Shown one piece after another: positions 853-34,787 of a DNA stretch of 64,000 bases. Location of the stretch: contig CAZFGK010000002.1 in the NCBI GenBank assembly GCA_964518635.1, forward strand, positions 101,803-165,802, in the 5' to 3' direction. The notes under the pieces are model-generated. The model had not been told where the DNA came from. It saw only the letters and a program-made list of their open reading frames with translations, and searched no databases. A program made the translations under genes and the position numbers. Origin of the DNA: an uncultured Ignavibacteriales bacterium (lineage in GTDB: Bacteria > Zixibacteria > MSB-5A5 > GN15 > FEB-12). Numbering within the stretch: the stretch's first letter is position 1; each line of letters starts with the position of its first letter.

Positions 853-3570
853 GTGAGCAAATCTCCGAATTCTCCCGGCGAGGGGGAGCAGCAGCAGTCT
901 GGTGAGAGCACTGAGAAAAAGTCAGTGGCGTATGATCCCCATGAAGGTGAGACTCGTCTCTATGACGGCTGGGTTTCGCAGGGGCTGTTCCATGCCGATG
1001 TGAATTCATCCAAGCCCCCTTATACTATTGTTATCCCGCCGCCGAATGTGACCGCGATTCTGCACTTGGGGCATGCCCTCAATAACACCATTCAGGATAT
1101 TCTGATTCGGACTCGCCGCATGCAGGGGTATGAAGCAGAATGGCTCCCCGGCACTGATCATGCCGGGATTGCAACGCAGGTGCTCGTTGAAAAGCAGCTT
1201 CGCAAAGAGGGGATCGATCGCCGCACGATCGGACGTGAAAAATTTCTCGAACGGACCACTGAATGGGCGGACAAGAATAAATTTGCAATTCTGAATCAGC
1301 TTCGAAAGATCGGCTCTAGTGCCGACTGGGATCGCACCCGCTATACCCTCGACCCGCAGTTGTCCCGTGCGGTCTTTGTGGTTTTCAAACATCTCTTTGA
1401 GAAGGGGCTGATCTATAAAGGGAAACGAATTGTCAACTGGTGCCCGACTGACCGAACGACTCTGTCAGATGATGAAGTCGAACATCAGGATCAGAATAGC
1501 TTTCTCTGGCAGATACGTTACAAACTCAAAGGGGCGGATGAATATCTGACCGTCGCAACTACGCGTCCGGAAACACTTCTTGGGGACACCGCACTCGCAG
1601 TGAATCCGAAAGACCCGCGCTACAAGAAATATATCGGGCAGAGTGTCCTCTTGCCGATCATGGATCGGGAAATTCCGGTTATCGGCGATACCTATATCGA
1701 CATGAACTTCGGTACCGGTGTGCTAAAGGTCACTCCCGCGCACGATACCAATGACTTTGAGATCGCGCGTCGCCATGATCTGCCAGAACTGAATATTCTC
1801 AATCCGGACGGCACCTTAAATGAAAACACCGGCAAATTCAAAGGATTGAAAGTCGCCGAAGCCCGCGAGCAGGTACTCGAAGAGCTTCGCAATCGAAAGT
1901 TGCTTGCTAAAGAAGAGCCGTATGTGCTGCCAGCGAGAATCTGCTATCGCTGCGGTTCGAAGATTGAGCCGTATCTGTCGGAACAATGGTTCGTAAAGAT
2001 GGGGCCACTTTCCGAACCGGCGATTCAGGCGGTGAAAAGTGGCACTCTCAGATTCCATCCCGAGTATTGGACGAAAACCTATCTCCACTGGATGGAGAAT
2101 ATCCGTGACTGGTGTATTTCACGGCAGCTCTGGTGGGGGCATCGGATTCCGGTCTGGTATGCAACCGACGGAACGATGTTTGTCTCGCAGGAAAGACCAC
2201 TCGCTTCAGAGTGCGTGAAAAACGGAAAGCAGTACGATCCTGCGACACTCACGCAGGATGAGGACGTGCTCGATACGTGGTTCTCATCATGGCTCTGGCC
2301 CTTCTCTACTTTTGGATGGCCGGATGAAACCCCTGAGATGAAAAAGTTCTATCCGACCAACACGCTGGTCACCGCCTCGGAGATTATTTTCCTCTGGGTG
2401 GCGCGTATGGTGATGGCCGGGTATGAATTTGTCGGTAAGTGTCCGTTCAATGATGTCTACATTCACGGGACTGTGCGTGACGAACGCGGACTCAAAATGT
2501 CGAAATCACTCGGCAACGGAATCGACCCGCTTGAGATTATCGAGAAGTACGGCACCGATGCGCTTCGTATGTCACTGGTACTGGTCTCTCCGGATGGACA
2601 GGACCCGAATGTCGGACGCAACACCTTTGAACTTGGACGGAACTTTTCAAATAAGCTGTATCAGGCCTCCCGTTTTGTGATGATGCGCTCTGAAGGGATT
2701 GCAATTCCTGCCTTCGCGTCATTAAAGTCATCCGACTTGATGCTCTTTGACAGATGGATTCTTTCACGACTGGCGCGCACCATCGAGCAGACCAGCCGCA
2801 CGACCGATGAGTTCCGTCTGTTTGCGACGGCGAAGACCCTCTACTCATTTGTGTGGGATGATTACTGCTCATGGTATCTGGAGCTAATCAAACCAGATCA
2901 GCAGGGAGAATCGATCCGCGCGCAATCACTCTCTGTGGCAAATTATGTTCTCGAAGAGATTCTTCGACTTCTGCATCCGTTTGTGCCGTTTGTGACGGAG
3001 GAGATATTCCAACAACTGCGAGATGACCGCACCGCGAGCGTGGTACGCGGCCCGTGGGCGAATCTTCGCACTGCGGACATTGATCTCGACTTAGAAAATC
3101 GATTGAAACTGATTCAGGATTTGGTGGTGGCAGTTCGTTCGTTGCGTTCGGAGTTGAATGTCCCCCCTTCGAAGAAATCTGATCTGCATATCCGCGCCGG
3201 TTCTCCGGAAACAGCGAAACTGCTTGAAGAGTATTCGAGTTACTTCCGGTCGCTTGCAAAGGTCGAGAAGCTGGAATGCGGCATCGATGTCAAACGACCG
3301 GCATTGTCTGCCTCGGCGGTAATATCAGGAGCGGAATTGTTCGTGCCACTGGCAGGACTCATTGATGTCGATCAGGAACGAGCGCGATTGAACAAGCAGC
3401 TGTCTGAATTGAAAGACGCGCTTGAGAAATTGTCCCGCAAACTCGCCAATGCCGATTTTCTCGCCAAAGCCGCTGCGGATGTGATCGATAAAGAAAAGGG
3501 GAAAAAGGCGGACTACGAAGAACGAATTGAAAAGCTGAACAAGAATCTGGAGCAGTTAGTGGGGTGGTGA
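853..3570 (+). CDS. valS: Valine--tRNA ligase
   Basis: 905-aa ORF with a class I HIGH-type motif (ILHLGHALN), KMSKS (LKMSKSLGN) and a ValRS-type C-terminal coiled coil (RARLNKQLSELKDALEKLSRKLAN). Ends with TGA. Confidence 0.97.
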   Translation: MSKSPNSPGEGEQQQSGESTEKKSVAYDPHEGETRLYDGWVSQGLFHADVNSSKPPYTIVIPPPNVTAILHLGHALNNTIQDILIRTRRMQGYEAEWLPGTDHAGIATQVLVEKQLRKEGIDRRTIGREKFLERTTEWADKNKFAILNQLRKIGSSADWDRTRYTLDPQLSRAVFVVFKHLFEKGLIYKGKRIVNWCPTDRTTLSDDEVEHQDQNSFLWQIRYKLKGADEYLTVATTRPETLLGDTALAVNPKDPRYKKYIGQSVLLPIMDREIPVIGDTYIDMNFGTGVLKVTPAHDTNDFEIARRHDLPELNILNPDGTLNENTGKFKGLKVAEAREQVLEELRNRKLLAKEEPYVLPARICYRCGSKIEPYLSEQWFVKMGPLSEPAIQAVKSGTLRFHPEYWTKTYLHWMENIRDWCISRQLWWGHRIPVWYATDGTMFVSQERPLASECVKNGKQYDPATLTQDEDVLDTWFSSWLWPFSTFGWPDETPEMKKFYPTNTLVTASEIIFLWVARMVMAGYEFVGKCPFNDVYIHGTVRDERGLKMSKSLGNGIDPLEIIEKYGTDALRMSLVLVSPDGQDPNVGRNTFELGRNFSNKLYQASRFVMMRSEGIAIPAFASLKSSDLMLFDRWILSRLARTIEQTSRTTDEFRLFATAKTLYSFVWDDYCSWYLELIKPDQQGESIRAQSLSVANYVLEEILRLLHPFVPFVTEEIFQQLRDDRTASVVRGPWANLRTADIDLDLENRLKLIQDLVVAVRSLRSELNVPPSKKSDLHIRAGSPETAKLLEEYSSYFRSLAKVEKLECGIDVKRPALSASAVISGAELFVPLAGLIDVDQERARLNKQLSELKDALEKLSRKLANADFLAKAAADVIDKEKGKKADYEERIEKLNKNLEQLVGW

Positions 3571-4558: not shown

Positions 4559-4587
4559 CCCGCTCCCTTTAGGGGCGGGTTCTTTTT
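4559..4587 (+). terminator. Rho-independent terminator hairpin, member of the GGTAGCC..CCCC-TTTA-GGGGCGGG repeat family
   Basis: CCCGC(T)CCC-TTTA-GGGGCGGG forms an 8-bp stem with one bulge, followed by TTCTTTTT, immediately after the stop at 4556-4558. Confidence 0.55.
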
Positions 4588-4728
4588 ATCTGTGGGCGGC
4601 AGACGCCCTCGTCTGCCCCTCTTCTCACCCTGAGCCTGTCGAAGGGTCTGCTTTCTCTTCGGTGCCCCACTGCGTATGCAAGCGCAGCCTGCAGAGCGTT
4701 TGGTTCCAGGTCTGTATTTCTTCCGGAT

Positions 4729-4977
4729 TAGGTGGCGTACCCCTTTCAAGGTGCGAAGTCAGTGAAGCACCTTTCGCGATTCTGCGGCTCGAATTATGCC
4801 GCACCCGACTACCGCCAATCACCCGCGCATGCAACCAGTCCGCGACAATAGTGACGATTCAGACAGCGGTCATCGTCCAAATGGAAGAGTCTATTCATTG
4901 ATTTGAAAACACGAGAGGCTCACCACGTTCGTCGATCACATCACTGACTTCGCACCCTAAAACGGGTGCGCCACCCA
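4729..4977. mobile_element. MITE-like element, copy A (~250 bp, hairpin-containing terminal inverted repeats)
   Basis: Left end is TAGGTGGCGTACCCCTTTCAAGGTGCGAAGTCAGTGAAGC. Right end is TCACTGACTTCGCACCCTAAAACGGGTGCGCCACCCA, its inverted complement. The interior aligns along its length with copy B at 6197-6448, with non-triplet indels. Confidence 0.55.
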
Positions 4978-5031
4978 ACCAAATCGACGGAAGGCGATGG
5001 AAAACAATAGGGTACAGCTGATCAACAGATC

Positions 5032-5343
5032 CTATTTCACTTGTTTTGATACCTTGATGTACTCCTGTAGCGCTTCCATATAGCCCGCGTAAGCTTTTCG
5101 CCCTACGGCCGTAAGCGTAAAGCGAGTCTTCGGCTTTCTGTCCTCAAATTGTTTCGTCGCACGTATGTATTTGGCCTCTTCCAGCTTGAGGAGATGGGTG
5201 CTCAGATTTCCATCGGTTGCGCCGGTCAAATCTCGTAGAAATACGAAATCCGCCTCCCGGACACTGACTAGGATTGTCATCACTGCCAATCGTAGCGGTG
5301 CGTGTATCACGAGATCAAGCGCTTCTAAGGGTTTCATTATCAT
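5032..5343 (-). CDS. Winged-helix transcriptional regulator (HTH_34/ArsR-like)
   Basis: 103 aa with LVIHAPLRLAVMTILVSVREADFVFLRDLTGATDGNLSTHLLKLEEAKYIRATKQFEDRKPKTRFTLTAVGRKAY, the classic winged-helix pattern. Confidence 0.7.
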   Translation of the reverse strand: MIMKPLEALDLVIHAPLRLAVMTILVSVREADFVFLRDLTGATDGNLSTHLLKLEEAKYIRATKQFEDRKPKTRFTLTAVGRKAYAGYMEALQEYIKVSKQVK

Positions 5344-5349
5344 TGGACG

Positions 5350-5994
5350 TCATTTTGCATTCAGGCTACGCACGCTTCGCCACAAAAGGTATCCGGGAAT
5401 TAAGTAACCCGGAATCACGATGGATGCCATAATCAAGGGATAGTATTTGTCGGGGAGTAGCATCATAATGACAGCCCCGTACCACCAGGACAATCCGCCC
5501 ATCTTGAACGACAATAGCCCCATGATATGTCCCGAAGAATAGACCGCAATCCCTGCCAGTATAGAAATCAGAACGTACGTCGCTCGCGGTGGGAAATAGT
5601 GTAAGATAGGATTGCCAAACACGATTACCGCGGCAGCTATCCCAGTGGCGAGCCACACGCCATCGTAGGTATGTTCCGAATGGGTCTGAACATGCGCACG
5701 GTTTCGATGACGACCCATTAGAATTACACTAATAATACCTCCTATCGGCATCAGGATTGCCCATGGAAGCCAGATGTCCCGCCCGGGATCCCTCTGTTCC
5801 AATATGTAGGTTAATATGCAAGCGACAAATAGTAGCGCGCCCCACACGAAATAAAAAGCGCTCCTATCGACTACCGTGGATTTGGTACGCGCGATCATTT
5901 CACTTGCTATTGCCAGCATCTTTTGGGCGTCCGAATCTTGCTCACGAGAGTTTTCCATCTTTATCCTTTCCGTTGTCAAAGTACTTTGCAACAC
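5350..5994 (-). CDS. Integral membrane protein (about 5 TM helices), co-oriented with the regulator
   Basis: 214 aa with several long hydrophobic segments (FYFVWGALLFVACILTYIL, WLPWAILMPIGGIISVILM, and others). A 6-nt gap separates it from the downstream regulator gene. Confidence 0.6.
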   Translation of the reverse strand: MLQSTLTTERIKMENSREQDSDAQKMLAIASEMIARTKSTVVDRSAFYFVWGALLFVACILTYILEQRDPGRDIWLPWAILMPIGGIISVILMGRHRNRAHVQTHSEHTYDGVWLATGIAAAVIVFGNPILHYFPPRATYVLISILAGIAVYSSGHIMGLLSFKMGGLSWWYGAVIMMLLPDKYYPLIMASIVIPGYLIPGYLLWRSVRSLNAK

Positions 5995-6196
5995 AAAGTA
6001 TATAGAGCATACGTTATTTGCAAGTATTTTGTTACAAGAGACTCTAATTCAAGATGTATATTTCAATCACGGTGCAAAGGCGACTACATTGAAGTCCGGG
6101 CTAGACCCCATTGCACGAGTATTCTGATCCTTTGAGGACCGGTGGCCTAGTTGATCACTTTGCTCCTCTTTTGTGGCCCGGGCTTGCGACCCGGGC

Positions 6197-6448
6197 TAGG
6201 TGGCGCACCCCTTTTAGGGTGCAAAATCAGTGAAGCACCTTACACGTTTCTACGGCTCGAATTATGCCAACTCTATCTTCACGAATCACCCTCGCGTGCA
6301 ACCAATCTGCGACAAAAAGTAACAGTTCAGACAGTGGGTAATCGTTGAAATGGAAGAGTCTGTTCATTGATTTTAAAATACGAGGGACTTACAGCGTTCG
6401 TCGATCACATCACTGATTTCGCACCCCAAAAGGGGTGCGCCATCCACC
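6197..6448. mobile_element. MITE-like element, copy B
   Basis: TAGGTGGCGCACCCCTTTTAGGGTGCAAAATCAGTGAAGC ... TCACTGATTTCGCACCCCAAAAGGGGTGCGCCATCCACC, in the same orientation and with the same internal blocks as copy A (CGGCTCGAATTATGCC, TGCAACCA, AAATGGAAGAGTCT.TTCATTGATTT, CGTTCGTCGATCACATCACTGA). Confidence 0.55.
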
Positions 6449-6490
6449 GGTCTCTTGCAGGAACTCACTAAACTTTAGTACGATGTCGCT

Positions 6491-7957
6491 GTGACTAGTA
6501 AATTAAAACGCTTAGCTCAGATGGTACTCTTGTCACTTGCCGCTATGGTGTGTTGCCTTGCAGCGTTTGTCTGGCTGCATCTGCCTGACTCTCAACCGCC
6601 CACATTCCCAAGACACATCATTGATGATGTTGCAATGATGCATCCAACTCGGGTGGACAGTTTGTTCACAATTGTCTCTGAGCAGGAGATTGGAGATGCC
6701 ATTCGCTACGCCCAATCTAAGGGTTTGCGAATTTCTATAGCGGGTCGGAGGCATAGCATGGGAGGCCATACGCTGACGCCTCAAGGGGTCACACTCCTCA
6801 TGACTGAATTTAATGACGTTTTGTCTTTTGATTCGGCATCGCAAACTGTCACCGTTCAAAGCGGGATTACCTGGGATACACTTCAGGCATATTTGAATCA
6901 GATTGGTTACGCGGTCATGTCGATGCAGGGGCCAAATATCTTTACTGTGGGTGGTTCGATGAGTGTCAACGCGCATGGTTGGGCTAAATTCAAGGAGCAG
7001 GTCGGAGAGAGCATCGTCTCTTTCAGACTGGTGCTTGCCGATGGTACCATTGCAACTTGTTCGCCATTTGAAAACGTTGAGCTCTTCAAACTTGCAATCG
7101 GTGGTTTCGGACTTTTCGGAGTTATCTCGGACGTCACCCTCCGAGTCGTAGAGAATGACATGCTTGCGCGATCCATTCGTCAGGTACGCGTGACTGATAT
7201 CGAGAAGATTTTTCGTTCAGAGTATGAACTTGATAGTAGCAGCGTCTTTTTTCATGCGGATCTTTCGATCGCTCCATCGAGCTTATTGCAAGAAGGGACA
7301 TTCTCTATTTTTCAGCGATTGCCTTTCGGTACTGATTCCATCAGCGTGACGATACAGCCTGAAAACAATGTAAATCGTGACCGGTTTTTTCTTCACCTAT
7401 CGCGACAATACGATTGGGGGAAAGAGCTGCGCTGGTGGCTACAAAAAAAACTCGTTCGCGGAGACACCCTCTCTCGAAACAACACGATGCATTCACCCTA
7501 TCAGCGACTCCAATACTATTCTCCAGAGAACGCCGACATATTGCAGGAGTATTTTGTACCAAGTGGGCGTGTTGTTTCTTTCTCGGACAAGCTTAGAGAA
7601 ATTGTCTCTTCAAGCAAGGCAAACCTCATTAACTGCACCGTACGGTCAATCCGGAAAAGTGAAGTCCCTTTCTTGAACTATGCAAAACAGGAAGGATTTG
7701 GTTTTGTGCTCTACCTAAATGTGCGAAAGGACAGTACCGGAAGAGCCGCTGACTCCCTTCTTACATCAAAGCTAATTGATGCCTGTCTGTCAGATTCAGG
7801 CACTTTCTATCTTCCCTATTTACCTTTCTACTCGGCTAAGCAGCTTCGAACTGCGTATCCGGAGATTGACGAATTCATAAGACTGAAAATTCAGTACGAT
7901 CCGAATGAACTCTTCGGGAGTCTTTTTTACGAGAGACTCAAAGCTCTGCTCCATTGA
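6491..7957 (+). CDS. Membrane-anchored FAD-binding (PCMH-type) oxidoreductase
   Basis: 488 aa with an N-terminal TM helix, the FAD_binding_4-like motif RISIAGRRHSMGGHTL and a C-terminal YDPNELFGSLFY typical of FAD-linked oxidases. Confidence 0.75.
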   Translation: MTSKLKRLAQMVLLSLAAMVCCLAAFVWLHLPDSQPPTFPRHIIDDVAMMHPTRVDSLFTIVSEQEIGDAIRYAQSKGLRISIAGRRHSMGGHTLTPQGVTLLMTEFNDVLSFDSASQTVTVQSGITWDTLQAYLNQIGYAVMSMQGPNIFTVGGSMSVNAHGWAKFKEQVGESIVSFRLVLADGTIATCSPFENVELFKLAIGGFGLFGVISDVTLRVVENDMLARSIRQVRVTDIEKIFRSEYELDSSSVFFHADLSIAPSSLLQEGTFSIFQRLPFGTDSISVTIQPENNVNRDRFFLHLSRQYDWGKELRWWLQKKLVRGDTLSRNNTMHSPYQRLQYYSPENADILQEYFVPSGRVVSFSDKLREIVSSSKANLINCTVRSIRKSEVPFLNYAKQEGFGFVLYLNVRKDSTGRAADSLLTSKLIDACLSDSGTFYLPYLPFYSAKQLRTAYPEIDEFIRLKIQYDPNELFGSLFYERLKALLH

Positions 7958-8344: not shown

Positions 8345-8875
8345 ATGACCCCCTTCGCCGAACCGACACTCATCAATCGAAACGTCCTCATGCTCAATCA
8401 GAACTATGAGCCGCTGACGGTCTGTTCTGCCCGACGGGCGATTGTCCTCGTTTTTCAGGGGAAGGCCGAGTTGATCGAAACTACCGAAGGGCTGTTTATG
8501 ACCTCGGTGCGGAGTCAGTTTGCGCTTCCGTCGGTGGTGCGGTTGTCGCAGTATCGACGGGTGCCGTACAAGCGGATCATGCTGACGAGGAAAAATGTCA
8601 TCATGCGGGACGGGCACAAATGCCAGTACTGCGGGACCTCACGCGGGCCGATGACGGTCGATCATGTACTGCCGCGCACGCGCAAAGGACCGGATTCGTG
8701 GGAGAATATGGTTTGCGCCTGTGTACGTTGTAATAATTCCAAAGGGGATCGTACGCCGGAAGAGGCGGGGTTACATCTGAAGAAACGGCCGACGCGGCCG
8801 TCACATATTCATTTTATCCAACGTCATATCGGTACTGCCGACACCAGATGGCGACCGTATCTGTTTATGGATTAG
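8345..8875 (+). CDS. HNH endonuclease
   Basis: 176 aa with DGHKCQYCG..MTVDHVLPRTRKGPDSWENMVCACVRCNNSKGDRTPEEAG, i.e. the HNH/ZnF motif. Its last ~20 codons are repeated downstream (see the repeat features). Confidence 0.85.
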   Translation: MTPFAEPTLINRNVLMLNQNYEPLTVCSARRAIVLVFQGKAELIETTEGLFMTSVRSQFALPSVVRLSQYRRVPYKRIMLTRKNVIMRDGHKCQYCGTSRGPMTVDHVLPRTRKGPDSWENMVCACVRCNNSKGDRTPEEAGLHLKKRPTRPSHIHFIQRHIGTADTRWRPYLFMD

Positions 8876-8885
8876 GCGGGCTTTG
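8810..8885 (+). repeat. Direct repeat copy 1 (the genuine 3' end of the HNH gene plus 10 bp)
   Basis: CATTTTATCCAACGTCATATCGGTACTGCCGACACCAGATGGCGACCGTATCTGTTTATGGATTAGGCGGGCTTTG. Confidence 0.9.
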
Positions 8886-8899: not shown

Positions 8900-9394
8900 A
8901 TGCCTGCTGCTACGCGAAACAAAAGTACGGCAAAGAGTCAAATGATTCCAAAGAAAGAGCTTTGGTCGTGCCCCGTCTGTGCAGCGCAGTTTGCCATTCG
9001 AAATCAGTCCCACTCATGCGGAGACTATAGCGTTGAAGGCTTCCTAGAGGGAAAGCCGGACCGACTTGTGGACCTGTTTCATGATTTCATTCGCGAGTAT
9101 CGAAAAATCGGAGAATTAACTCTCCACCCAGTCAAGACACGCATTGCGCTTCTTTCAAAAGTGAGATTTGCTTCAGTAAACAAGATCGGAAAAGATTGTC
9201 TTGTTGGTCATCTGGTTCTGACACGACGAGCAAATCATAAGTCTCTGTTTACAAAAATCGATAATTTGAATGACCGGTTCTATGTGCATCACTTTAGACT
9301 AAGTCACATGAACGAAATCGACGAAATATTTATTGGGTACATGCGTGAGGCCTATGACTATGGTGAACGAAAGCATTTGAAAGGTGCCAAGTAA
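8900..9394 (+). CDS. DUF5655-like protein (Cys-x2-Cys..His-x-Cys N-terminus)
   Basis: 164 aa with WSCPVCAAQFAIRNQSHSCG followed by a ..VKTRIALLSKVRFASV..FYVHHFRL..EIDEIFIGYMREAY pattern, recalled from the DUF5655 family. An alternative ATG lies at 8942. Confidence 0.55.
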   Translation: MPAATRNKSTAKSQMIPKKELWSCPVCAAQFAIRNQSHSCGDYSVEGFLEGKPDRLVDLFHDFIREYRKIGELTLHPVKTRIALLSKVRFASVNKIGKDCLVGHLVLTRRANHKSLFTKIDNLNDRFYVHHFRLSHMNEIDEIFIGYMREAYDYGERKHLKGAK

Positions 9395-9430: not shown

Positions 9431-9505
9431 CATTTATCCAGCGTCATATCGGTACTGCCGACACCAGATGGCGGCCGTATCTGTTTATGGATTAGGTGGG
9501 CTTTG
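9431..9505 (+). repeat. Direct repeat copy 2 (orphan copy of the HNH 3' end)
   Basis: CATTTATCCAGCGTCATATCGGTACTGCCGACACCAGATGGCGGCCGTATCTGTTTATGGATTAGGTGGGCTTTG. It still encodes FIQRHIGTADTRWRPYLFMD-stop. Confidence 0.9.
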
Positions 9506-11753
9506 TCCAGATAACTCTCGTTACTTCATCGAAGCGCGGATGTTGTCGCACTAGTTCCCAGTGAGGGCTATGTCGTGACCACAATACCATCGGATCACGT
9601 TCTTCTACACATCTCTCAAGCATCCGAATCGTGTCATCAGGCAATCCTGCAGAAGAAGCAGCAATTGCCAGATAGGAGGGGGCTACAAACTCAAGTCGTG
9701 AACGTCCGGCGAGTTCATCGTACACCGCCCGAGCCAGTGCGTGACGGTTCATCTTGTAGTAGATCCAACCGGTCAAACCGAGCATCCACGGATCACGACC
9801 GGAACTCTTGATCGCGGGCAAGGCCAGTTCCACCGCTCTTTCGTACTGACCGTCAAAGGCATAAGCACGAATCTGATTCCATTTGGCAAAGAATGCCGTG
9901 GGAACCTGAGTCACTGCCTTTTCTGCAAACTCAATTGACTCACGGTTCCGACCTGCGTGACCAAGTACTATAGAATGCTGAGTAGAAATCCAGCCATTGA
10001 GCGGATCTTCGTGGAGTGCCCGTTCAGATTCGGAGAGAGACTTTTCGATAGTGAACAGCCCGCTTGAATAGGACCACGTAGTACGCTGGCTTCGCGCCCG
10101 GGAATTGCGCGGATCGATTGCCAATGCCCGCTCCATTGTTGCGTAGGCCCCTGTGAAGTCCCACTCAAACTGCTCTTGTACGCAAGCGAGCGTTGCCCAT
10201 GCCTCAGAATGTTCGGGATTCAACTGCAAGGCGTGCGTGACAAGCTCTTTTGCTTTTGTCATCGCAACCGCGGCAGGAGCCTGACCATATGTCGCCAGAT
10301 TGCGATAGGTATCCGCAAGCCAAACCATCGGATCAACATAGTTTGCGTCCAGTGCGATGGCCCGTTCAAAGAAGGGAATCGCTTCGAGCATGTACGGGCC
10401 GCGTTTTTCCATGAGGGCACGACCGCGGAGGAAGAGTTCGAAGGCTTCGATACTCCGAGTCTTCCGAACTCCCGCCGCCTTCTCGGCATCGCTGTCCATC
10501 GAGGTTCTGAGTCGACTGACTATCGCAGAAGCGATTCGATCCTGAATCTCGAAGATGTCGGTCATCTCCAGATCAAATCGCTCGGTCCAGAGTTGATAGC
10601 CATCACGTGCATTGACCAGTTGAGCGGTGATACGCAGGCGATTTCCGGCCCGCTGAACTGTTCCTTCAAGGACCGTCTGCACTTCAAGCTTCTCGGCAAC
10701 TGTCCGCAAGTCTTCCCGTTTCCCCTTGAATGCAAAACTTGATGCCCGGGCAGAAACGCGAAGACCGGGGAGTTGCGAAAGGACATTGGTTATTTCGACG
10801 GTGATTCCATCTGCGAAATACTCATACGATGCATCGCCGAGGTTTTCAAACGGAAGCACTGCAACAGAATTCTCCAATGAAGGCGCGATTGAAGCAGTAT
10901 TCGATGCGATGTTTTCGAGGGACATGCGAATCTCTCGCATGGAGCTCGGTCGATCATCTGTTGACTTTTTCAGGCATCGCTTCACAAGATCACGTAAAGC
11001 GCCGGGTGCAGAAGTTGGTAGAGATGTCCAGACTGGTTCACGTTCGAGAATTTCGACAATGAGATCCGGCGAGCTTTCGGATTTGAATGGAGGTTGTCCC
11101 GAGAGCATTTCGAAGAGCAGACAGCCGAATGCCCAGATATCAATCCGGAAATCGACCGGCTTACCGCGAAGTTGCTCAGGGCTCATATACGGGACAGTTC
11201 CCAACAATTGCCCGGCACGAGTAGCGGAGAGGTTTGCCGTCTGATCTGAAAACTCCGAACCGACGAGTGCGCCCTGGATCAGTTTCGCGAGTCCAAAATC
11301 GAGAACTTTTGAGACACCGTCAGACGTTATCATGACATTCCCGGGCTTCAGGTCCCGATGAATGATGCCGCGGTCATGAGCTGATTCTATTGCCGAAGCA
11401 ATCTGCGTGGCGATCTTTGTTGCCGCAGTTGCTTCCAGTTTGTCACGAGTCAGCAATTCGGCGAGAGAATCACCTTCGATGAACTCCATGACCAGATACT
11501 CGATCTCATCCTGTACGCCGATGTCGTACAAGACACAGATGTTGGAGTGATTGAGGGCCGAGACCGCTCTCGCCTCGATTTCAAACCTGCGCTGGGATGA
11601 TGAATCAAGATTCGCGTTGATCGGCAGGACTTTTACTGCGACGAGACGATTGAGGCGCGTGTCTCGGGCCTTGTAGACCTCACCCATTCCCCCTTTTCCT
11701 GCCAAGCCGATTAGCTCATAGGGGCCGAGACGGGTACCGGATGGAAGGGTCAA
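9492..11753 (-). CDS. Ser/Thr protein kinase with a TolB-N-like middle region and C-terminal TPR repeats
   Basis: 753 aa with the Hanks kinase motifs GKGGMGEVYKA, VAVKVL, HRDLKPGNV, DFGLA and SPEQ, then VAVLPFENLG.. and TPR-like repeats. Its stop codon lies inside repeat copy 2. Confidence 0.9.
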   Translation of the reverse strand: MTLPSGTRLGPYELIGLAGKGGMGEVYKARDTRLNRLVAVKVLPINANLDSSSQRRFEIEARAVSALNHSNICVLYDIGVQDEIEYLVMEFIEGDSLAELLTRDKLEATAATKIATQIASAIESAHDRGIIHRDLKPGNVMITSDGVSKVLDFGLAKLIQGALVGSEFSDQTANLSATRAGQLLGTVPYMSPEQLRGKPVDFRIDIWAFGCLLFEMLSGQPPFKSESSPDLIVEILEREPVWTSLPTSAPGALRDLVKRCLKKSTDDRPSSMREIRMSLENIASNTASIAPSLENSVAVLPFENLGDASYEYFADGITVEITNVLSQLPGLRVSARASSFAFKGKREDLRTVAEKLEVQTVLEGTVQRAGNRLRITAQLVNARDGYQLWTERFDLEMTDIFEIQDRIASAIVSRLRTSMDSDAEKAAGVRKTRSIEAFELFLRGRALMEKRGPYMLEAIPFFERAIALDANYVDPMVWLADTYRNLATYGQAPAAVAMTKAKELVTHALQLNPEHSEAWATLACVQEQFEWDFTGAYATMERALAIDPRNSRARSQRTTWSYSSGLFTIEKSLSESERALHEDPLNGWISTQHSIVLGHAGRNRESIEFAEKAVTQVPTAFFAKWNQIRAYAFDGQYERAVELALPAIKSSGRDPWMLGLTGWIYYKMNRHALARAVYDELAGRSRLEFVAPSYLAIAASSAGLPDDTIRMLERCVEERDPMVLWSRHSPHWELVRQHPRFDEVTRVIWTKPT

Positions 11754-11884: not shown

Positions 11885-11956
11885 ATTGTCCAGCTTCATA
11901 TCGGCACTGCCGACACCAGATGGCGACGGTATCTGTTCATGGATTAGGTGGGCTTG
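11885..11956 (+). repeat. Direct repeat copy 3 (orphan, more diverged)
   Basis: ATTGTCCAGCTTCATATCGGCACTGCCGACACCAGATGGCGACGGTATCTGTTCATGGATTAGGTGGGCTTG, which encodes IVQLHIGTADTRWRRYLFMD-stop. Confidence 0.85.
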
Positions 11957-12683
11957 AAAGACACACATATTCGTCTGCCGCTGCTGTGAGCATGTCCGTT
12001 GGATAAATCTCATGATACACGTCTCGCTGGATGAACGAATTGGCAAGTTCAATGACAGCAGGAATGTTGTAATTTCCGCTCACAAGTGGAAGCGAATAGT
12101 AGACAAAGAGAACTGAATCAAAAGTATAGGTTCGGCGAAGTCCCATGTCAGGAGTGGATCCTACAGAAATCTTCCCACCCAATTCAGCTGTAAGCCATTT
12201 AATACTCGACCATTCTTGGGCAACCTGCAACGACTCTACACCTGGCGAGTGTACGAACTGGACACTTATGCTGTCTGCATCGATAACATCGTAGCGAATT
12301 TTGAAAATGACAGACGTGTCAGCAGTAAACTCACAGTCGACAGTATCAGGCCAGGTTCGTCGAGTCTCTATTATTGCCTTCGCCCTCCCCTTTGGTAGCC
12401 GTCTGGAGAAGCTGGAGAGACTATCAGACTTGAATCCGATGACTTCCCCATCAGGATAAAGGAATCTTATCTGCGGTCGGTCGCCGGTGGCGACAGCATA
12501 GCGGAGGTCGCTGGGTTGGAATCCGTAGGGATAGTCGATGTAACAATACCACGCCAGAACCTGACCACTGACCAGCACGGTATCATTGTTTGCCGGAGCG
12601 ATGACTGATTTTTCGGTGCAGGTCACTGACGCAAAGACACAGAGCAGCAAGGCGATCACACTTGCAAATTGACTTTTTTTCAT
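11937..12683 (-). CDS. Hypothetical lipoprotein (paralog 1)
   Basis: Start chosen at MKKSQFASVIALLLCVFASVTC (signal peptide plus lipobox Cys). Shares its architecture with the next gene. Its stop lies inside repeat copy 3. Confidence 0.55.
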   Translation of the reverse strand: MKKSQFASVIALLLCVFASVTCTEKSVIAPANNDTVLVSGQVLAWYCYIDYPYGFQPSDLRYAVATGDRPQIRFLYPDGEVIGFKSDSLSSFSRRLPKGRAKAIIETRRTWPDTVDCEFTADTSVIFKIRYDVIDADSISVQFVHSPGVESLQVAQEWSSIKWLTAELGGKISVGSTPDMGLRRTYTFDSVLFVYYSLPLVSGNYNIPAVIELANSFIQRDVYHEIYPTDMLTAAADEYVCLSSPPNP

Positions 12684-15423: not shown

Positions 15424-15774
15424 GTGGCGGTTGATTGCCAAGAGAGTATCTTGTGGCGGATTTCACAAAGTTCCGTGTGTACGGAAAGGAGATCGGTCAC
15501 GAAACGTCGTCAATGGGATGCCAAGACGAAGGCCAAAATCGTCCTCGATGGATTGTCCGGCAAGCCGGTGAGCGAGCTGTGCAGCCAGTATCAGATCAGT
15601 CAGACTCAGTACTATCAGTGGCGGGATAAATTCCTTGTCGAAGCCCATCGTGCTTTTGAAGTGAAAGCTGACGTTGGTGAAGTGGTTCGTCTGAAAGCAA
15701 AGACCGAGAAGCTGGAACGGATCATCGGAGTCCTGACTATCGAACTAGAAAAGACAGAGTACGAACTACGATGA
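15424..15774 (+). CDS. IS3-like transposase OrfA (HTH plus leucine-zipper-like tail)
   Basis: RRQWDAKTKAKIVLDGLSGKPVSELCSQYQISQTQYYQWRDKFL...LKAKTEKLERIIGVLTIELE. The start codon is uncertain because there is no in-frame ATG. Confidence 0.7.
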   Translation: MAVDCQESILWRISQSSVCTERRSVTKRRQWDAKTKAKIVLDGLSGKPVSELCSQYQISQTQYYQWRDKFLVEAHRAFEVKADVGEVVRLKAKTEKLERIIGVLTIELEKTEYELR

Positions 15775-16502
15775 GACGAGCATCGGAATCGGTTACCACC
15801 CGAAACGAATCAACTCTTGCATCTCTTCGTGAACTGAAAGCCGACCACCCCTTCTGGGGATACCGCCACCGCTGGGCTCATCTTCGGTATGTCAATCGTC
15901 TCGATGTGAACAAGAAGCGTGTCTACCGCCTGATGAAACAGCATCGCTTGTTAGCAACGCAGACCACGCACGAGATCCCTCGTTTACCTATGAGACCGAA
16001 GCCACGAGCAGATCGTCCGAATCAGTGGTGGGGGATCAATATGACCAAGGCGATGACGGAGCGTGGCTGAACCTATATTGTGCTGATGAAGAACTGGTAC
16101 ACGAAGCAGATAGTCGGTCATCACTGCGGAACGACGGCGACCTCACGAGAATGGTTGCTGGCACTGGAGCGAAGATTGCAACGGCAGTGTCAGGATGGAT
16201 CACGTAACGAGCAGACTCATCTGATGTCAGATAACGGTTCCCAGCCGACCTCACTGACCTTCATGAAGAGTTGCAGCATCCTTGTTGTGCAGCAGGCCTT
16301 CACGAGTTACAACAACCCGAAAGGGAACGCTGACACCGAACGGATGATACGGACATTGAAGAAGGAACTCATCTGGCTTCGAGAGTGGCGCGATCCACAT
16401 CAGTTGTCAGATAAAGTCAGTCGATGGATAGAAGAGTACAATGCGACCTGGCTGCATGCGGCGCTGAATTACCGGACGCCGAACCAAGTCGCAGATACCT
16501 AG
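15771..16502 (+). pseudogene. IS3-like transposase OrfB (rve integrase core) interrupted by an in-frame TGA at 16068-16070
   Basis: ORFs 15771-16070 and 16080-16502 are in the same frame. The sequence reads ..WWGINMTKAMTERG-stop-TYIVLMKNWYTKQIVGH..LMSDNGSQ..PKGNADTERMIRTLK. The first catalytic Asp position reads Asn (GINMT). Confidence 0.75.
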
Positions 16503-19800: not shown

Positions 19801-21852
19801 ATGCGTCCAAAGTTCCTTAAACTCACTCTTCCCCTCTTGATTTCATTAGTAATATCAGCGAAGGCGGACACTGTCTATGTGACAGTGGACAACCTCTCCG
19901 GAGTTACTGCGAGTGATGTCCACTTGTACTTTTCTGGTGGAGGTGGTGTGCTCTTCGTCGCACCACTCACAGTCATCGCTCCAGGATGCCCTGTTCCTGT
20001 TGTCACGACTAACCCACCAGTTGTCAGCAATCAGGTTGATATTGATTGGGGAATCTCCTGTGTGATGAATGGGACATCTGTCTCTCTCGTTGTCGCAAGC
20101 CCAAATGGTCCTCTCGTTTTGGATTCCATTTGCTGGACAGTTTCGGGCTCTGTTGTCGGGTGTCAGACATTCGGCATTGGTCTCATCGTCATGCCTCCTC
20201 CAGGGCCGTTTGGTGCGATCAAAATTCGCACTCGGTGTGTACCGAAAGGCCCAGTCATTTGCACCAAGTGGTTTCCGCCGGGAGTCATTCGGCCATTCTG
20301 CTGGGCGAGGTGGTGTTGTATCCCCAATCGACAGATTTACTACCGCGCATATTACTGTCCATTCCCGAACAGAATTTCGCGTTTCTTTGAGACCGGTCCG
20401 TGGATTCCTTTGGACTCAGTATGGAGAAAAGGTGGAATGAAGGGACCGTTCTATGGGTGGATTTTCAGAACAGTACCCCCACCGCCTGACTCAATTATTC
20501 AGGGTCCTCCTCCGGAAATTCAACAACTCGCACGCCCCCCGTATGCCCCATGGGATGAAGAGTTGCAAGTTGTCCGCACCGATGACACAGGCAAGTCTTG
20601 GCAGCAAGGACACGATTTCATCGAGTCATTCTTCGATATCTTCCACCAATTGGTAGTCACCAGCGATACTACACCAGCCCTGATGACACTTTCCGACCAC
20701 TTGATGGCAAATGCCCCCTGTTGGGATTCGGCTCGAATGGAAGTTACAGAATTGCGCCTTGAAATGCAGCAACTGCAATTGGTAAGTCCAATTCCGCAGT
20801 TACCTCCAATGATCGGTGCCCTCAACGGGATAGAGATCGAGCTCAATGCCCTCTCCCTACAGGGGCTTGCTGGAAATCCAGCGCCGCCACCCTCTTACTT
20901 CAACCTTTCGAACGCGTTCATGGGGTTGTCGTCTCAAATCAACTCTCTTGCGGGGTTATCGCCGCGATTTGTGCACGCATCACAAGATCTAGCGCTCATC
21001 GCACAAGGGTTTCAGGTATCTGGTAGTGCTGTCGCGGCAGGGCTCCTGACGCAGGATCAACAGGATGCGTTTAGATGGGGACTATTCAACCGTTTTGCGC
21101 AACATAGCGAAATGGTTGCAACAGCAATGTCTCCTCATGCGCGTGTGCAGCTTTCCGCTCCTCAGATCGAGTGGGAGCAATCGACGATAAATGGAGTCAT
21201 GGTCGTCACCCAGTCTGATCAGTCTTGCCCTGTCGATACTTCTATGCAGAATCTATCCTCAATGTCGCGTTTTGATATAGACTTGATGCCCCACTTGTCA
21301 TCAGCTCAGATGGCAGTCTGGTTTAAAGTGCCGGGCGCATTAGCGCAGTACCAAGTATTTGCTCCTACCGACGGTCAGACCTTGCCAACTTTACCTCTCG
21401 TGATCGGAGACATCGACGATGACAATTGTGTTGGCTTGACTGATCTCCTGCAAGTGACTGCCGATCAGGGAGAGGGCGGTCTTGCTGCCGATTCAGTCCC
21501 TTCGTCAGATGTGAACCATGATGGTATTGTTGATACAACGGATTTGCAGATTGTACAGAACAATCTCGGTCAATGCGGAGACAACTGGATTCCACTAGTG
21601 CCAGCATGCTCGCTTCCGAGTTGCTGTGTCGGTCCAGTCGTTGGCAATGTTGACTGCGATCTTGCGCAATCAGTTGATATCGCTGATTTGACAGTTCTCG
21701 TTGACCACTTGTTCATTTCGTTTGCGCCTTTGTGCTGCAACAACGAAGCAAATGTCGACGGTGATCTTCTGGTGAGCATTGATATCGGCGATCTGACCGT
21801 TCTCGTCGATCACTTGTTCATATCATTCACACCACTGCTACCTTGTCCTTAA
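19801..21852 (+). CDS. Secreted protein of unknown function with one canonical dockerin-like segment and a twin DI(A/G)DLTVLVDHLFISF C-terminal module
   Basis: 683 aa with a signal peptide (MRPKFLKLTLPLLISLVISAKA), GGAGG upstream, a Cys/Trp/Pro-rich N-terminal region, and GDIDDDNCVGLTDLL..SDVNHDGIVDTTDLQIV. It ends ..VDIADLTVLVDHLFISFAPLCC..IDIGDLTVLVDHLFISFTPLLPCP. Confidence 0.75.
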   Translation: MRPKFLKLTLPLLISLVISAKADTVYVTVDNLSGVTASDVHLYFSGGGGVLFVAPLTVIAPGCPVPVVTTNPPVVSNQVDIDWGISCVMNGTSVSLVVASPNGPLVLDSICWTVSGSVVGCQTFGIGLIVMPPPGPFGAIKIRTRCVPKGPVICTKWFPPGVIRPFCWARWCCIPNRQIYYRAYYCPFPNRISRFFETGPWIPLDSVWRKGGMKGPFYGWIFRTVPPPPDSIIQGPPPEIQQLARPPYAPWDEELQVVRTDDTGKSWQQGHDFIESFFDIFHQLVVTSDTTPALMTLSDHLMANAPCWDSARMEVTELRLEMQQLQLVSPIPQLPPMIGALNGIEIELNALSLQGLAGNPAPPPSYFNLSNAFMGLSSQINSLAGLSPRFVHASQDLALIAQGFQVSGSAVAAGLLTQDQQDAFRWGLFNRFAQHSEMVATAMSPHARVQLSAPQIEWEQSTINGVMVVTQSDQSCPVDTSMQNLSSMSRFDIDLMPHLSSAQMAVWFKVPGALAQYQVFAPTDGQTLPTLPLVIGDIDDDNCVGLTDLLQVTADQGEGGLAADSVPSSDVNHDGIVDTTDLQIVQNNLGQCGDNWIPLVPACSLPSCCVGPVVGNVDCDLAQSVDIADLTVLVDHLFISFAPLCCNNEANVDGDLLVSIDIGDLTVLVDHLFISFTPLLPCP

Positions 21853-22115: not shown

Positions 22116-24236
22116 TCAGATGCAAGCCGGCAGAGGCGCAAATGAAATGAACAAGTGATCTACAAGAACAGTCAGGTCAGCAATGTCGATGCTACTGTCA
22201 ACAAGCACGTCTGCTTCATCAGGGCAGCAGAGCGGCGGAAAGCTGATAAAGAGGTGATCGACCAGTACTGTCAGATCGGCGATATCGACGCTATGCAATA
22301 CATCGCAATCGATATTCCCCCGCGTACCAATACAACAGCTAGTGCTACTTCCAGTAATGACAAACGACAGATCAAGCGACTGCGTGAAAGCCGGTGGTTC
22401 ATACATTTCAATCCAAGGTACTGAAGGAATGAATGGCGTCCCCTGTCGTATCCGTGCTATGCCCGTGGTTGATCCGGACATTCCTGCGAATGGACCGCCG
22501 GGATTACCCACAAAATCGATTCGGTAGGAAATGTCGAAGAAACTTCCGACACCCCACTGGGGACCGACTTGAGTAAGATTAGTTTGACCCGGGCTAGGCA
22601 TACCAAAAGTAGTCCCTGCGGTAATTCGCAGCAGATCAAAATCAGGATCACCCACAATTTGACCCTGCATTTCAAAATAGTCAGTGGGAAATATTTGCGG
22701 TGACGCAAATGGTACACGTGGAGCGGTATGGACCGTATTGAGAGGTAGCGGAATATTGACGATGCGGGCATACCCCAAGAAGGCGCCCGTACCATTCATT
22801 CTGAGTTGAAGTTGGGAGTTGAATTGCGATTGCGTGCCGCCGAGTCCGCCCCCCGGAGTTTCTACCACACCACTAATCGAATGCATGATCGCGTTGCATT
22901 CAATCGTGGTGGCAGGTGGCAATCCGCTTGAAATGTAAAAGAGATCATTATTGTCAAAGGGACAGGTGGCTACTTGCGTGGCTGTCCCGAATCCGTTGTC
23001 TGGAGCAATACAGATAGCTGCCGGAGTCAGCGTACGGTAGACAGCATCATCATTGAAATGATTCTGCGTCGATTTCCAACCCCAACGCTGGCCAGCCGAT
23101 GTGTCGGCAAGCTGTGCCGAAATACTAAGCCAATAGATTGTGCCGAAAGTCTGATTGAACCACTTCGGTGGCTTGAGTAACACATCGTACTGCCAATATT
23201 CGTTGTGGTTCGCAAAGACGAAAAACGGAAAATATGGGTCGTACCAGCCCTCAAATAATCCCGGAGTGATAGGCGTCATGACATAGTCAGTTACGGTATC
23301 AGCCCACAAAAGTGTTCCGGGGTGGCTGTAGGGAAGATCAAACCCGGCTGGAACATCCGTATAAATCTCCAGATAGAATCGATCGATCTTTTCAGCCTGT
23401 CCGTTGATGAAAGAGCCCCAGAAATGGAGGTCTTTCACCGGACCAGTCTCAGAGCAACTCCAGTCGTCGCTAAGTCGACGTGGCCACGTTGCCGAAACAT
23501 CCCAGCCGGTTTCGTCGGGATGCTGGGCAAAATGCATCTTATGGCTATCCCCCGGTACCCAGCGCGGACAGCCTTGATAAAATCTGATGTTGCGATTCGT
23601 CGAACCGGACATCCCTGCAAGTGATCCACCGGGCGCACCGACAAAATCAATTCTGTACTCTATATCAAAAAAGCTCTCAGATGACCATCCTGGGGTTTGT
23701 TGCGAAAAAGTAGTATGTCCCGGGCTTGGCATACCAAAATTGGTACCTGCGACGATTCGAAGCAGATCGAAATCGGGGTCACCAAAAATTTGTCCGAAAT
23801 GTTCATCAAGGTAGCCGTCAAATGGCTGAACGATCTCAAATGCAGTCCGGGGAGCGTTTTGGAACTGCACTTGAACCGGCATGACTATATTGCGTGAAAA
23901 ACCGACGAGTGCTCCGGTGCCGTTCAAATTCATCTTGAGCTGAGCATTGGCGGTGACGGTCTCTCCCAACAGTGGACCACCGGGAACACTGACTATTCCT
24001 GAAAAGTTTTCAAGTGATGCATGAATCTCGATTGTCGATCCAAACGGAAGACCATTGACGATTTGCATGGTTTGACCGCAGCACGGCGTATATGAACAGG
24101 GAGCTGGGAAATTGGCCGTTCCAAATCCATTGTCTGCTGCGGCACATGGTGAACAGGGTACCGACGGTTGCGCATGAATCACTGACGCAAACAGCACAAA
24201 ACACAGCATGACCGCAGACCATCGAATCGCTCTCAT
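22116..24236 (-). CDS. Secreted protein with an internally duplicated ~200-aa domain and the twin dockerin-like C-terminal module
   Basis: Start chosen at MRAIRWSAVMLCFVLFASVIHA, with GGAGG 7 nt upstream. Two alignable copies of ..DNGFGTA....C.....G.P....IE......SG.V..PGG.LGG.........L.MNGTGA..G..R....P.....APR..F...Q.F........GQI.GDPDFDLLRI.AGT.FGMPSPG.T.......W....FFDI.YRIDFVG.PGG..AGMSGST... It ends VDIADLTVLVDHLFISFPPLCC..IDIADLTVLVDHLFISFAPLPACI. Confidence 0.75.
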   Translation of the reverse strand: MRAIRWSAVMLCFVLFASVIHAQPSVPCSPCAAADNGFGTANFPAPCSYTPCCGQTMQIVNGLPFGSTIEIHASLENFSGIVSVPGGPLLGETVTANAQLKMNLNGTGALVGFSRNIVMPVQVQFQNAPRTAFEIVQPFDGYLDEHFGQIFGDPDFDLLRIVAGTNFGMPSPGHTTFSQQTPGWSSESFFDIEYRIDFVGAPGGSLAGMSGSTNRNIRFYQGCPRWVPGDSHKMHFAQHPDETGWDVSATWPRRLSDDWSCSETGPVKDLHFWGSFINGQAEKIDRFYLEIYTDVPAGFDLPYSHPGTLLWADTVTDYVMTPITPGLFEGWYDPYFPFFVFANHNEYWQYDVLLKPPKWFNQTFGTIYWLSISAQLADTSAGQRWGWKSTQNHFNDDAVYRTLTPAAICIAPDNGFGTATQVATCPFDNNDLFYISSGLPPATTIECNAIMHSISGVVETPGGGLGGTQSQFNSQLQLRMNGTGAFLGYARIVNIPLPLNTVHTAPRVPFASPQIFPTDYFEMQGQIVGDPDFDLLRITAGTTFGMPSPGQTNLTQVGPQWGVGSFFDISYRIDFVGNPGGPFAGMSGSTTGIARIRQGTPFIPSVPWIEMYEPPAFTQSLDLSFVITGSSTSCCIGTRGNIDCDVLHSVDIADLTVLVDHLFISFPPLCCPDEADVLVDSSIDIADLTVLVDHLFISFAPLPACI

Positions 24237-24496
24237 ATTTCCTCCTGTATTCCAATTGAATCTCGACTCCCTTTTTTCATTCAAAAAAAGAGAACCTTAC
24301 TGCCATCAATTTTCAAAGGATGTCAGAGTGCGGAAAGAAATATTGAGTCGAAGTCGAGGATAACTGTCATCCTCGAGGTCGTGGAGAGCGGGAGGATTCC
24401 GCACATGAGACTAAGTAATGTAGTGTGGCGGGTTTGCAGGTCAAGAGGAAAATACAATGCGATTCGTTAGTAGCGAAAGCGACATGGACAAACAGT

Positions 24497-24533
24497 TAGG
24501 TGGCACACCCTTTAGGGTGTGAAGTTAGTGATG
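24497..24533. repeat. Solo copy of the MITE terminal inverted repeat
   Basis: TAGGTGGCACACCCTTTAGGGTGTGAAGTTAGTGATG matches the left TIR of the elements at 4729 and 6197 and contains the hairpin CACACCC-TTTA-GGGTGTG. No element interior follows. Confidence 0.6.
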
Positions 24534-34699: not shown

Positions 34700-34787
34700 T
34701 GGCGGAGAGGTAGGGATTCGAACCCTAGAAACCTTTCAGTTTAACGGTTTTCGAGACCGCCGCTTTCGACCGCTCAGCCACCTCTCC
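34700..34787 (-). tRNA. tRNA-Ser (anticodon CGA), CCA encoded
   Basis: Minus strand reads GGAGAGGTGGCTGAGCGGTCGAAAGCGGCGGTCTCGAAAACCGTTAAACTGAAAGGTTTCTAGGGTTCGAATCCCTACCTCTCCGCCA. The 7-bp acceptor stem GGAGAGG/CCTCTCC, anticodon loop CU-CGA-AA, long variable arm and T-arm TAGGG-TTCGAAT-CCCTA were folded by hand. Confidence 0.9.

Follow-up and report, generated by a model that had tools for sequence, protein, structure and literature searches.

Two copies of a non-coding sequence of about 250 bp, here called elements A and B, bracket a small gene cassette in contig CAZFGK010000002.1 of an uncultured, Zixibacteria-like bacterium. They lie within the 64-kb stretch (64,000 nt) that was analysed and that is referred to below as the window. 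The family to which they belong is dispersed among unrelated intergenic sites, narrowly distributed and restricted to a lineage. We give about an even chance to the reading that A and B are lineage-restricted, non-autonomous mobile repeats, built as long versions of the inverted doublets of repetitive extragenic palindromic (REP) units known as REPINs, and probably moved by a putative REP-associated tyrosine transposase (RAYT). An earlier note on this DNA had proposed a non-autonomous transposable element family of the type of MITEs (miniature transposable elements with inverted repeats). The dispersed, non-coding and inverted-repeat-bounded character of the family bears out the first part of that proposal, but a strict MITE assignment does not hold up well against the lack of a duplication, the lack of a parent element and the REP-type ends.

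Elements A and B

The two elements and the isolated end unit found in the window are as follows.

4726-4980, plus strand: element A, a non-coding repeat of ~255 bp (from sequence, repeat finder and alignment)
4728-4765 and 4941-4980: left and right inverted repeats of element A
4732-4735 and 4971-4974: GTGG heads of element A, the second read as CCAC
6194-6446, plus strand: element B, a ~253-bp copy in the same orientation as A (from sequence, repeat finder and alignment)
6194-6233 and 6410-6446: left and right inverted repeats of element B
24497-24533, plus strand: solo end unit, GTGG followed by a CACACCC-TTTA-GGGTGTG hairpin and AAGTTAGTGA

A and B are co-linear, on the same strand and 1.47 kb apart. 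The earlier note had placed them, in the same orientation, at 4729-4977 and 6197-6448, and only these bounds are refined here. Its estimate by eye, that some three quarters of positions are identical, reflects a real similarity but is too low: a global alignment shows 209 of 255 columns to be identical (82%), with five single-base gap columns. The indels between the copies are non-triplet, which had already been taken to argue against coding, and stop codons break every reading frame in at least some family copies.

The terminal inverted repeats, first put at ~37 bp, measure 38-40 nt. In A the repeat finder pairs 4728-4765 with 4941-4978 (38 nt, 87% complementary), and in B it pairs 6201-6233 with 6410-6442 (33 nt, 94% complementary, extensible to ~40 nt). 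Each arm of A and of B contains the hairpin (C)GCACCC-loop-GGGTGC(G), as the earlier note had it, with stabilities of -6.8 to -9.5 kcal/mol as single-stranded DNA. A degenerate pattern of the ends has five matches in the window, two at the ends of A, two at the ends of B and one at 24501-24531, against 0.00 expected from 100 shuffles.

Outside of the inverted repeats the flanks of A and those of B are unrelated and give no alignment. Since the similarity stops at the inverted repeats, the pair is not a segmental duplication that includes non-element flanks. A duplication or an assembly artefact, which two similar copies at a distance of 1.47 kb might bring to mind, can be regarded as refuted: in addition to the unrelated flanks, the copies differ by 18%, and other copies are present at unrelated loci in another data set.

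REP-type architecture of the ends

Thirteen end units of the family are considered here, and their consensus is GGCTGG-GTGG-CGCACCC-GTTTTA-GGGTGCG-AARTCAGTGA. A GTGG head is thus followed directly by a 7-bp hairpin (CGCACCC-GTTTTA-GGGTGCG) and then by a short conserved tail, AARTCAGTGA. The GTGG head together with C(G/A)CACCC-loop-GGGTG(C/T)G is found in 12 of the 13 units, the exception being the right end of B, which has ATGG. The core TGGC..CCC...G.G...A.T.AGTG is invariant across all of them, and the hairpin is paired in 92% of cells.

A REP unit is defined by a 5′ GT(A/G)G tetranucleotide and a directly adjacent palindrome (PMC3686654), and the ends of the family are constructed in this way. 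A REPIN is an inverted REP doublet that forms a hairpin (PMC3686654; PMC3116915). The two ends of an element are inverted, with their heads outward, and can pair over 34-40 bp. The head-to-head span is ~243 nt, whereas the doublets described in Pseudomonas have spacings of 71 or 110 bp, measured between REP starts and not as spacer length (PMC3116915). The spacer core is conserved within a subfamily and is not self-complementary, which also differs from REPINs. Short GTGAY motifs recur beside the inner ends of both inverted repeats.

Singlets accompany the doublets, as in REP/REPIN-RAYT systems. The solo unit at 24497-24533, which lies between the genes at 22116-24284 and 24632-27202, displays a G-C to A-T double change in its stem that is also found in a solo unit on a metagenome contig (L001, below). 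The earlier note had described it as a third, isolated left end. An isolated end is indeed present, but the designation "left" is doubtful, as the inner flank, AGTGATG, is more similar to a right end than to a left end.

Small hairpin repeats of other classes are found near the elements and elsewhere in the window.

6173-6195, plus strand: separate REP-like unit, GTGG followed by CCCGGG-cttgcga-CCCGGG, abutting the left end of B
4592-4617, plus strand: REP-like unit belonging to a further class, GTGG-gc-GGCAGACG-ccct-CGTCTGCC, within the spacer to the left of A, which is rich in repeats
61265-61288, minus strand: classical-looking REP unit, GTAG followed by CCCTGAGC-accc-GCTCAGGG

A compensated-stem variant of the unit at 4592-4617 is present in metagenome contig L003 (1186-1211), and the unit at 61265-61288 has two further occurrences, with an identical stem, in contig L002. 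Additional perfect hairpins headed by GT(A/G)G are found in both contigs. What can be drawn from these hairpins comes from their recurrence between loci and not from their number in the window.

Several small hairpin repeats are packed into intergenic repeat nests, at 4559-4727 and 61100-61350 of the window, at 1351-2493 of L002 and at 1000-1253 of L003. Hairpin classes common to the nests of the window and of the metagenome assembly include GTAGCCCTGAGC-nnnn-GCTCAGGG, GTGGGCGGCAGRCG-ccct-CGYCTGCC and TCTCACCCTGAGCYTGTCGAAGGGTCT. A single Logan contig of the same organism was found (L085, 1,968 bp), and it breaks off at window position 4583, inside the nest to the left of A. From this contig end the repeats appear to break short-read assemblies. 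Reads of the same organism are in run SRR12822864, and reads of relatives in SRR14932699, SRR13076564, SRR13076517 and SRR13076562.

Further copies and their distribution

The exact degenerate end pattern, which misses more diverged ends, was searched for in 185,579 GTDB species genomes (one genome for each), in IMG/VR and in 241 M metagenome records. No match was found in the species genomes and none in IMG/VR. Among the metagenome records only four short contigs matched, none of them with a transposase. The further copies sought in following up the earlier note thus exist: eight more end units, belonging to full, partial and solo copies, are found at unrelated loci on four short contigs of metagenome assembly CXWL01. 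Complete copies occupy L001 880-1125 and L002 1683-1921. Partial copies are at L001 1-258, cut by the contig start, in L004, where the contig end leaves the left half, and in L003, where the copy is truncated; a solo end is at L001 1163-1200.

The neighbours of these copies are mutually unrelated, i.e., a lipoprotein-like small open reading frame (ORF), recA, an AraC-type regulator gene downstream of its copy, and a 270-aa ORF upstream of its copy. All 13 end units are intergenic, and five of them are within the window. The CXWL01 contigs have two other small hairpin repeat classes in common with the window; their source is therefore the same organism or a close relative of it.

At least two subfamilies can be recognised. 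A, B and the L004 copy are 80-82% identical and form the first; the second copy of L001 and the L002 copy are 76% identical and form the second. Whole-element identity between the subfamilies is 59-64%. The 40-nt ends remain ~85-90% alike across subfamilies, while the interiors can barely be aligned (~50% alike, as estimated from pairwise identities and the alignment).

Other searches did not extend the family. BLAST with the whole element gave nothing meaningful against plasmids and phages, and a profile of the two open end translations (LGGAPVLGCEVSD and SLTSHPKTGAPP) had one insignificant hit among 5.8 billion predicted proteins. When the window and 18 loci (231 kb) were scanned with a covariance model of the end unit, only the 13 known units and one truncated unit came up. 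The ends of the family were not found at the loci of relatives that were examined.

Target sites and transposases

The flanks were inspected for target-site duplications, as the earlier note had suggested, and none were found. No direct repeat of 2-9 bp is present in more than two of the four full copies, at any pair of end offsets, and the only matches are chance ones of 2 bp. Transposition of the IS200/IS605 type, by HUH enzymes with a single catalytic tyrosine (Y1), leaves no target-site duplication. The absence of a duplication therefore fits HUH/Y1 transposition and speaks against most DDE transposons.

The earlier note had reported no transposase with matching ends in the window, and this is correct. 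The only transposase is a decayed copy of an IS3-family insertion sequence (IS) at ~15424-16502, at which the end model matches nothing.

15424-15774: orfA-like ORF of the IS3 remnant
15771-16070 and 16080-16502: orfB of the IS3 remnant, split by a stop (rve_3, E = 6e-12)

The IS3 remnant was considered as a parent element and rejected, its ends being unrelated to those of the 250-bp elements. An autonomous parent with the same ends, whose existence had been raised as a check, was likewise not found in the window, the 185,579 species genomes, the metagenomes, IMG/VR, plasmids or phages. A tblastn search of the element interior revealed no RAYT-derived coding remnants.

A RAYT gene was found beside the same cassette in a relative. 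In L090, a decayed and frameshifted RAYT gene has a stitched translation that matches the NCBIfam model REP_Tyr_transpos with E = 2.2e-16 and 60 bits, which is below the curated cutoff of 80. This pseudogene adjoins repeats that are different from those of the window. It occupies L090 9165-9814, with GTAG-headed palindromes upstream of it and inserted inside it.

In the mechanism favoured here, the elements would be moved in trans, as single-stranded DNA, by an HUH tyrosine transposase of the RAYT type whose gene would lie in another part of the genome. The enzyme would recognise the head and the hairpin at each end, and movement would follow an IS200/IS605-like course, without a duplication.

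The bracketed cassette and its junctions

The DNA between A and B carries two genes on the minus strand.

4981-6193, minus strand: bracketed cassette, of which 4983-6137 is homologous to relatives that carry the cassette elsewhere
5032-5343, minus strand: gene of an HTH_34 winged-helix regulator (Pfam, E = 4.7e-29)
5350-5958, minus strand (ORF open to 5994): membrane-protein gene, with 5-6 hydrophobic segments and no Pfam match

The description of the enclosed pair as a regulator and a protein with five transmembrane segments is in agreement with these assignments. Homologues of the membrane protein were found at 61-88% identity, and in every contig fetched the HTH_34 gene follows the membrane-protein gene. 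A 202-aa protein (P0132), carried by a Logan contig of 1,278 bp, falls into one 90%-identity cluster with the membrane protein of the window. The surroundings of the cassette differ, and seven contexts were found.

Window: ORF125 and an FAD-binding gene
L086-L089: Rrf2-nos cluster and a histidine-kinase/STAS cluster
L090: urocanase, with the RAYT pseudogene, and alcohol dehydrogenase
L091: tRNA
L092: non-coding DNA
L093: response regulator and an NTP-transferase/HEPN pair
L094: TetR and MarR genes

Compared between the window and L086, the cassette shows a DNA identity of 81% and a protein identity of 83-84%, against 50-76% for the syntenic proteins of the nos cluster.

On the A side, homology to the relatives starts at 4983-4986, only 3-6 nt from the inner end of A (4980); the exception is L090, where it starts at 5043. 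On the B side, homology gives out somewhere from 6042 to 6137, ahead of B, whose first position is 6194. In L086, L091, L093 and L094 the homologous unit extends ~65 nt further, with a small repeat (GACCTCACTCTC...) in it. The repeat has arms that are inverted on both sides of the cassette in L086 and L094, and also in L091, as seen by inspection of the contig start.

L086: small-repeat arms at 9771-9790 and 11019-11038
L091: arms at 1-18 and 1253-1267
L093: arms at 3030-3049 and 3110-3129
L094: arms at 1197-1212, 2216-2231 and 3514-3525

In the relatives this small dispersed repeat has the form (G/A)ACCTCACTCTC...GAGAGTGAGGTC(GGGGCCGCCA). It also occurs at places other than the cassette, and L093 has it as a doublet of ~100 bp.

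Important is that neither the outer ~65 nt of the relatives nor the small inverted arms were found in the window beyond A or beyond B. Thus A and B did not simply insert into a unit that was intact. As read from the alignments with relatives, the inner ends of A and B coincide with junctions between a trimmed cassette and the elements, and the DNA outside is unrelated. Trimming has gone further in L090, where two perfect 40-nt direct copies of another palindromic unit enclose the cassette. The first of them, an imperfect palindrome, comes directly after the RAYT pseudogene, and the second is at 10944-10983. A search for an empty site gave only a homologue of the FAD-binding gene that is 50% identical, as the nearest one, and the valyl-tRNA synthetase (ValRS) neighbourhoods of the nearest genomes show no synteny downstream.

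Two further observations concern the sequences next to the elements. Upstream of the cassette, at ~5976-6045, are palindromic blocks, AAAGTACTTTG-n5-CAAAGTA and a CTTGCAACAAA..TACTTGCAA block. They are kept in all aligned relatives except the most divergent one (L093), despite an overall divergence of 20-30%, and are probably the operator of the HTH_34 regulator, a predicted assignment. To the right of B, only 45 nt (6447-6491) separate the end of the element from the start of the FAD-binding oxidoreductase gene, so that a promoter or leader of this gene would be in B or read through B.

Alternative explanations

Several findings weigh against the REPIN-like, RAYT-moved interpretation. The window has no RAYT gene, as determined by protein scans and tblastn, and the total of known end units is 13. 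Hairpins with a GT(A/G)G head are not significantly enriched window-wide (10 observed and 5.05 in shuffles, with a maximum of 11). Covariation in the hairpin is not significant: it concerns a single pair, G-C to A-T in two solo units, with both one-step intermediates present, and 67 of 500 shuffles score as high. At ~175 nt, the spacer has two to three times the length known from described REPINs, and its conservation within a subfamily is more like that of a MITE core. In addition, A and B may be inactive relics, since their ends and interiors have diverged equally (~82% identity in each).

A classical MITE is an unlikely alternative, although one to be taken seriously. The elements would then be internally deleted derivatives of an insertion sequence, a DDE transposase would act in trans by binding the 38-40-bp ends, and the internal hairpin would be incidental. 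Small size, terminal inverted repeats and the lack of a transposase gene are all features of the A/B family, and the length of the repeats, the absence of coding capacity, the conserved subfamily core and the dispersed intergenic copies agree with the MITE definition (PMC4133298). The GTGAY motifs near the inner ends could be subterminal transposase-binding sites. Such a MITE is, however, difficult to reconcile with four full copies that have no 2-9-bp target-site duplication at any offset. No insertion sequence with these ends was found in any of the collections searched for a parent. The hairpin units also occur alone, as a subtype of their own in two places, and the ends obey the REP rule of a head with an adjacent palindrome.

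Either mechanism could be combined with capture of the cassette, in which A, cassette and B form one mobile unit, and we regard this as possible but on the doubtful side. Since the copies have the same orientation, a left end and a right end are both available on the outside, and the segment of A, cassette and B may in the past have moved as a whole, or have been joined as a whole to the flanks that it has now. It could have been transposed by the outer left end of A and the outer right end of B, or a circle of the cassette and one element could have integrated into a resident element. The earlier suggestion that the elements mobilised the gene pair finds circumstantial support in the seven contexts of the cassette, in the junction at the inner end of A (L090 excepted) and in the missing outer sequence of the relatives beyond A and B. 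To these can be added the higher conservation of the cassette proteins than of the nos-cluster proteins in the comparison with L086. A parallel is seen in L090, with its two perfect 40-nt direct copies of another palindromic unit around the cassette. Another is seen in L001, where two elements in the same orientation enclose a single ORF. There is also precedent in the TIME-COMPs, where paired miniature elements can move intervening DNA (PMC4133298). On the other hand, no duplication or other signature is present at the outer junctions, and the B-side breakpoint is fuzzy, with homology ending at 6042-6137 and B starting at 6194. The 18% divergence of A and B implies that any composite event is old. 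The two L001 elements are only 61% alike, which is compatible with separate insertions into a region rich in repeats. That A and B moved or captured the cassette is plausible and would be the most economical reading of the trimmed flanks; independent insertions with adjacent deletions, or recombination between dispersed copies, would look alike.

The earlier note had offered, as a different possibility, a structured RNA of ~250 nt with a conserved interior and a closing terminal stem, to which we assign a very small probability. Single copies do have far lower folding energies than shuffled sequences, with z = -6.9 and -7.5 on the two strands, and in L001, L004 and the window genes follow closely downstream of elements. 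The strongly negative scores are nevertheless due to the 34-40-bp terminal duplex. For the four full copies RNAalifold gives, whichever strand is taken, only this terminal stem and no consistent interior fold, and the interiors are poorly conserved between subfamilies. Rfam gave no match to the elements, be it at the gathering threshold or with the limit set to E <= 5. There are also solo ends and truncated copies, and the orientation relative to neighbouring genes is not uniform.

Comparison with known systems

REP/REPIN-RAYT systems share with the present family the GT(A/G)G head and adjacent short palindrome, the inverted ends with outward heads that can pair, the occurrence of singlets beside doublets, the intergenic location in clusters with other REP classes and the absence of a target-site duplication. 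Differences, besides the span, are the conserved and non-self-complementary spacer of ~175 nt, the lack of a cognate RAYT in the 64-kb window and a host that is Zixibacteria-like, not proteobacterial. Enterobacterial bacterial interspersed mosaic elements (BIMEs) are similar in that REP-type units of several classes share intergenic spacers, as do those at 4592-4617, at 6173-6195 and in the L002 and L003 nests. Tandem arrays of REP pairs, as in BIMEs, are not seen here, and the 250-bp unit is a single repeat with its own core.

In size (~250 bp), in the 38-40-bp inverted repeats and in a non-coding core that differs between subfamilies, the elements are like MITEs and TIMEs (Tn3-derived miniature elements with inverted repeats), and the two same-orientation copies around passenger genes are like a TIME-COMP. 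TIMEs are 262 bp long, have 38-bp inverted repeats of the Tn3 family and make duplications of 5-6 bp (PMC4133298). The present elements make none, and no related autonomous transposon was found. The inverted repeats of the Tn3 family have the consensus GGGG...TAAG. A Tn3-derived TIME was rejected on account of the missing duplication and of ends that start with GGCTGGGTGG, without GGGG...TAAG.

Integron attC sites are also imperfect inverted-repeat elements, found in direct orientation around small cassettes, and their copies within a genome are similar. They have RYYYAAC...GTTRRRY core sites and are roughly 57-141 bp long. The present elements are longer and also occur as single copies away from any cassette. 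Their ends read GGCTGGGTGG...CCACCCAGCC and the conserved core sites are absent; the only sequence resembling RYYYAAC, ACCCAAC of copy A, is at the wrong end, and the other copies do not conserve it. No integron integrase was found in the window, the only integrase being the IS3 rve fragment. A palindrome-associated transposable element (PATE) of the IS200/IS605 type was rejected because the ends are true inverted repeats, and a retron or group II intron remnant because there is no reverse transcriptase and no Rfam hit.

Other features of the window

The window is chromosomal and includes genes for ValRS, SecA, Lon and pyrimidine synthesis, a nos cluster and multihaem cytochromes. ValRS is 65-67% identical to that of the nearest genomes, which are mostly metagenome-assembled genomes of Zixibacteria, with one labelled Ignavibacteriales. 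The sole Rfam match in the window at gathering score is a tRNA at 34703-34787.

Three other repeats are present. A 73-nt direct repeat occurs at 8813-8885, 9433-9505 and 11885-11957, the later copies being 96% and 86% identical to the first. It corresponds to the 3′ end of an HNH-endonuclease gene (8345-8875), is repeated after a DUF5655 gene (8900-9394), and in its third copy follows a Ser/Thr-kinase/TPR gene (9492-11753, minus strand). The repeats look like att-type duplications from serial insertions at the 3′ end of a gene, with no integrase nearby. An 11-nt identity, GGATTAGGTGG, between the left junction of A and the 73-nt repeat (8813, 9433, 11885) looks coincidental, since the 73-nt repeats have no hairpin unit after them, and it was not used.

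A module of 60-70 nt is found in tandem pairs, 99-105 nt apart, at 21675-21845, 22123-22286 and 24644-24806. Here three large genes that are next to each other have their 3′ ends (19801-21852 on the plus strand, 22116-24284 and 24632-27202 on the minus strand), and the module probably codes for a C-terminal domain common to all three. A direct repeat of 200 nt, with 80% identity, at 38944-39143 and 39418-39617, represents two paralogous cytochrome c genes that lie side by side on the minus strand (38943-39392 and 39417-39926).

Significance

A broader and decidedly improbable proposal is that REP-type doublets are the ends of a duplication-free transposition or capture system that moves whole gene cassettes in this lineage. 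The same cassette, trimmed of its ancestral flanks, would then have been captured independently between direct copies of two different palindromic repeats, i.e., the 250-bp elements of the window and the 40-nt unit beside the RAYT pseudogene of L090. RAYT/REP systems are usually regarded as domesticated and free of cargo; were the proposal true, they would be vehicles for gene movement. If the cassette was truly carried, it would also be a rare case of miniature repeats without a transposase that move host genes outside of the plasmid and resistance-gene setting of TIME-COMPs. If neither applies, the elements are an ordinary new family of small mobile repeats. The repeats mark rearrangement junctions. 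REP/REPIN-RAYT systems have been characterised mainly in proteobacteria, and REP-type repeats in an uncultured Zixibacteria-like lineage, with an unusually long doublet whose core is conserved, would extend both the range and the forms in which REPs and REPINs are known.

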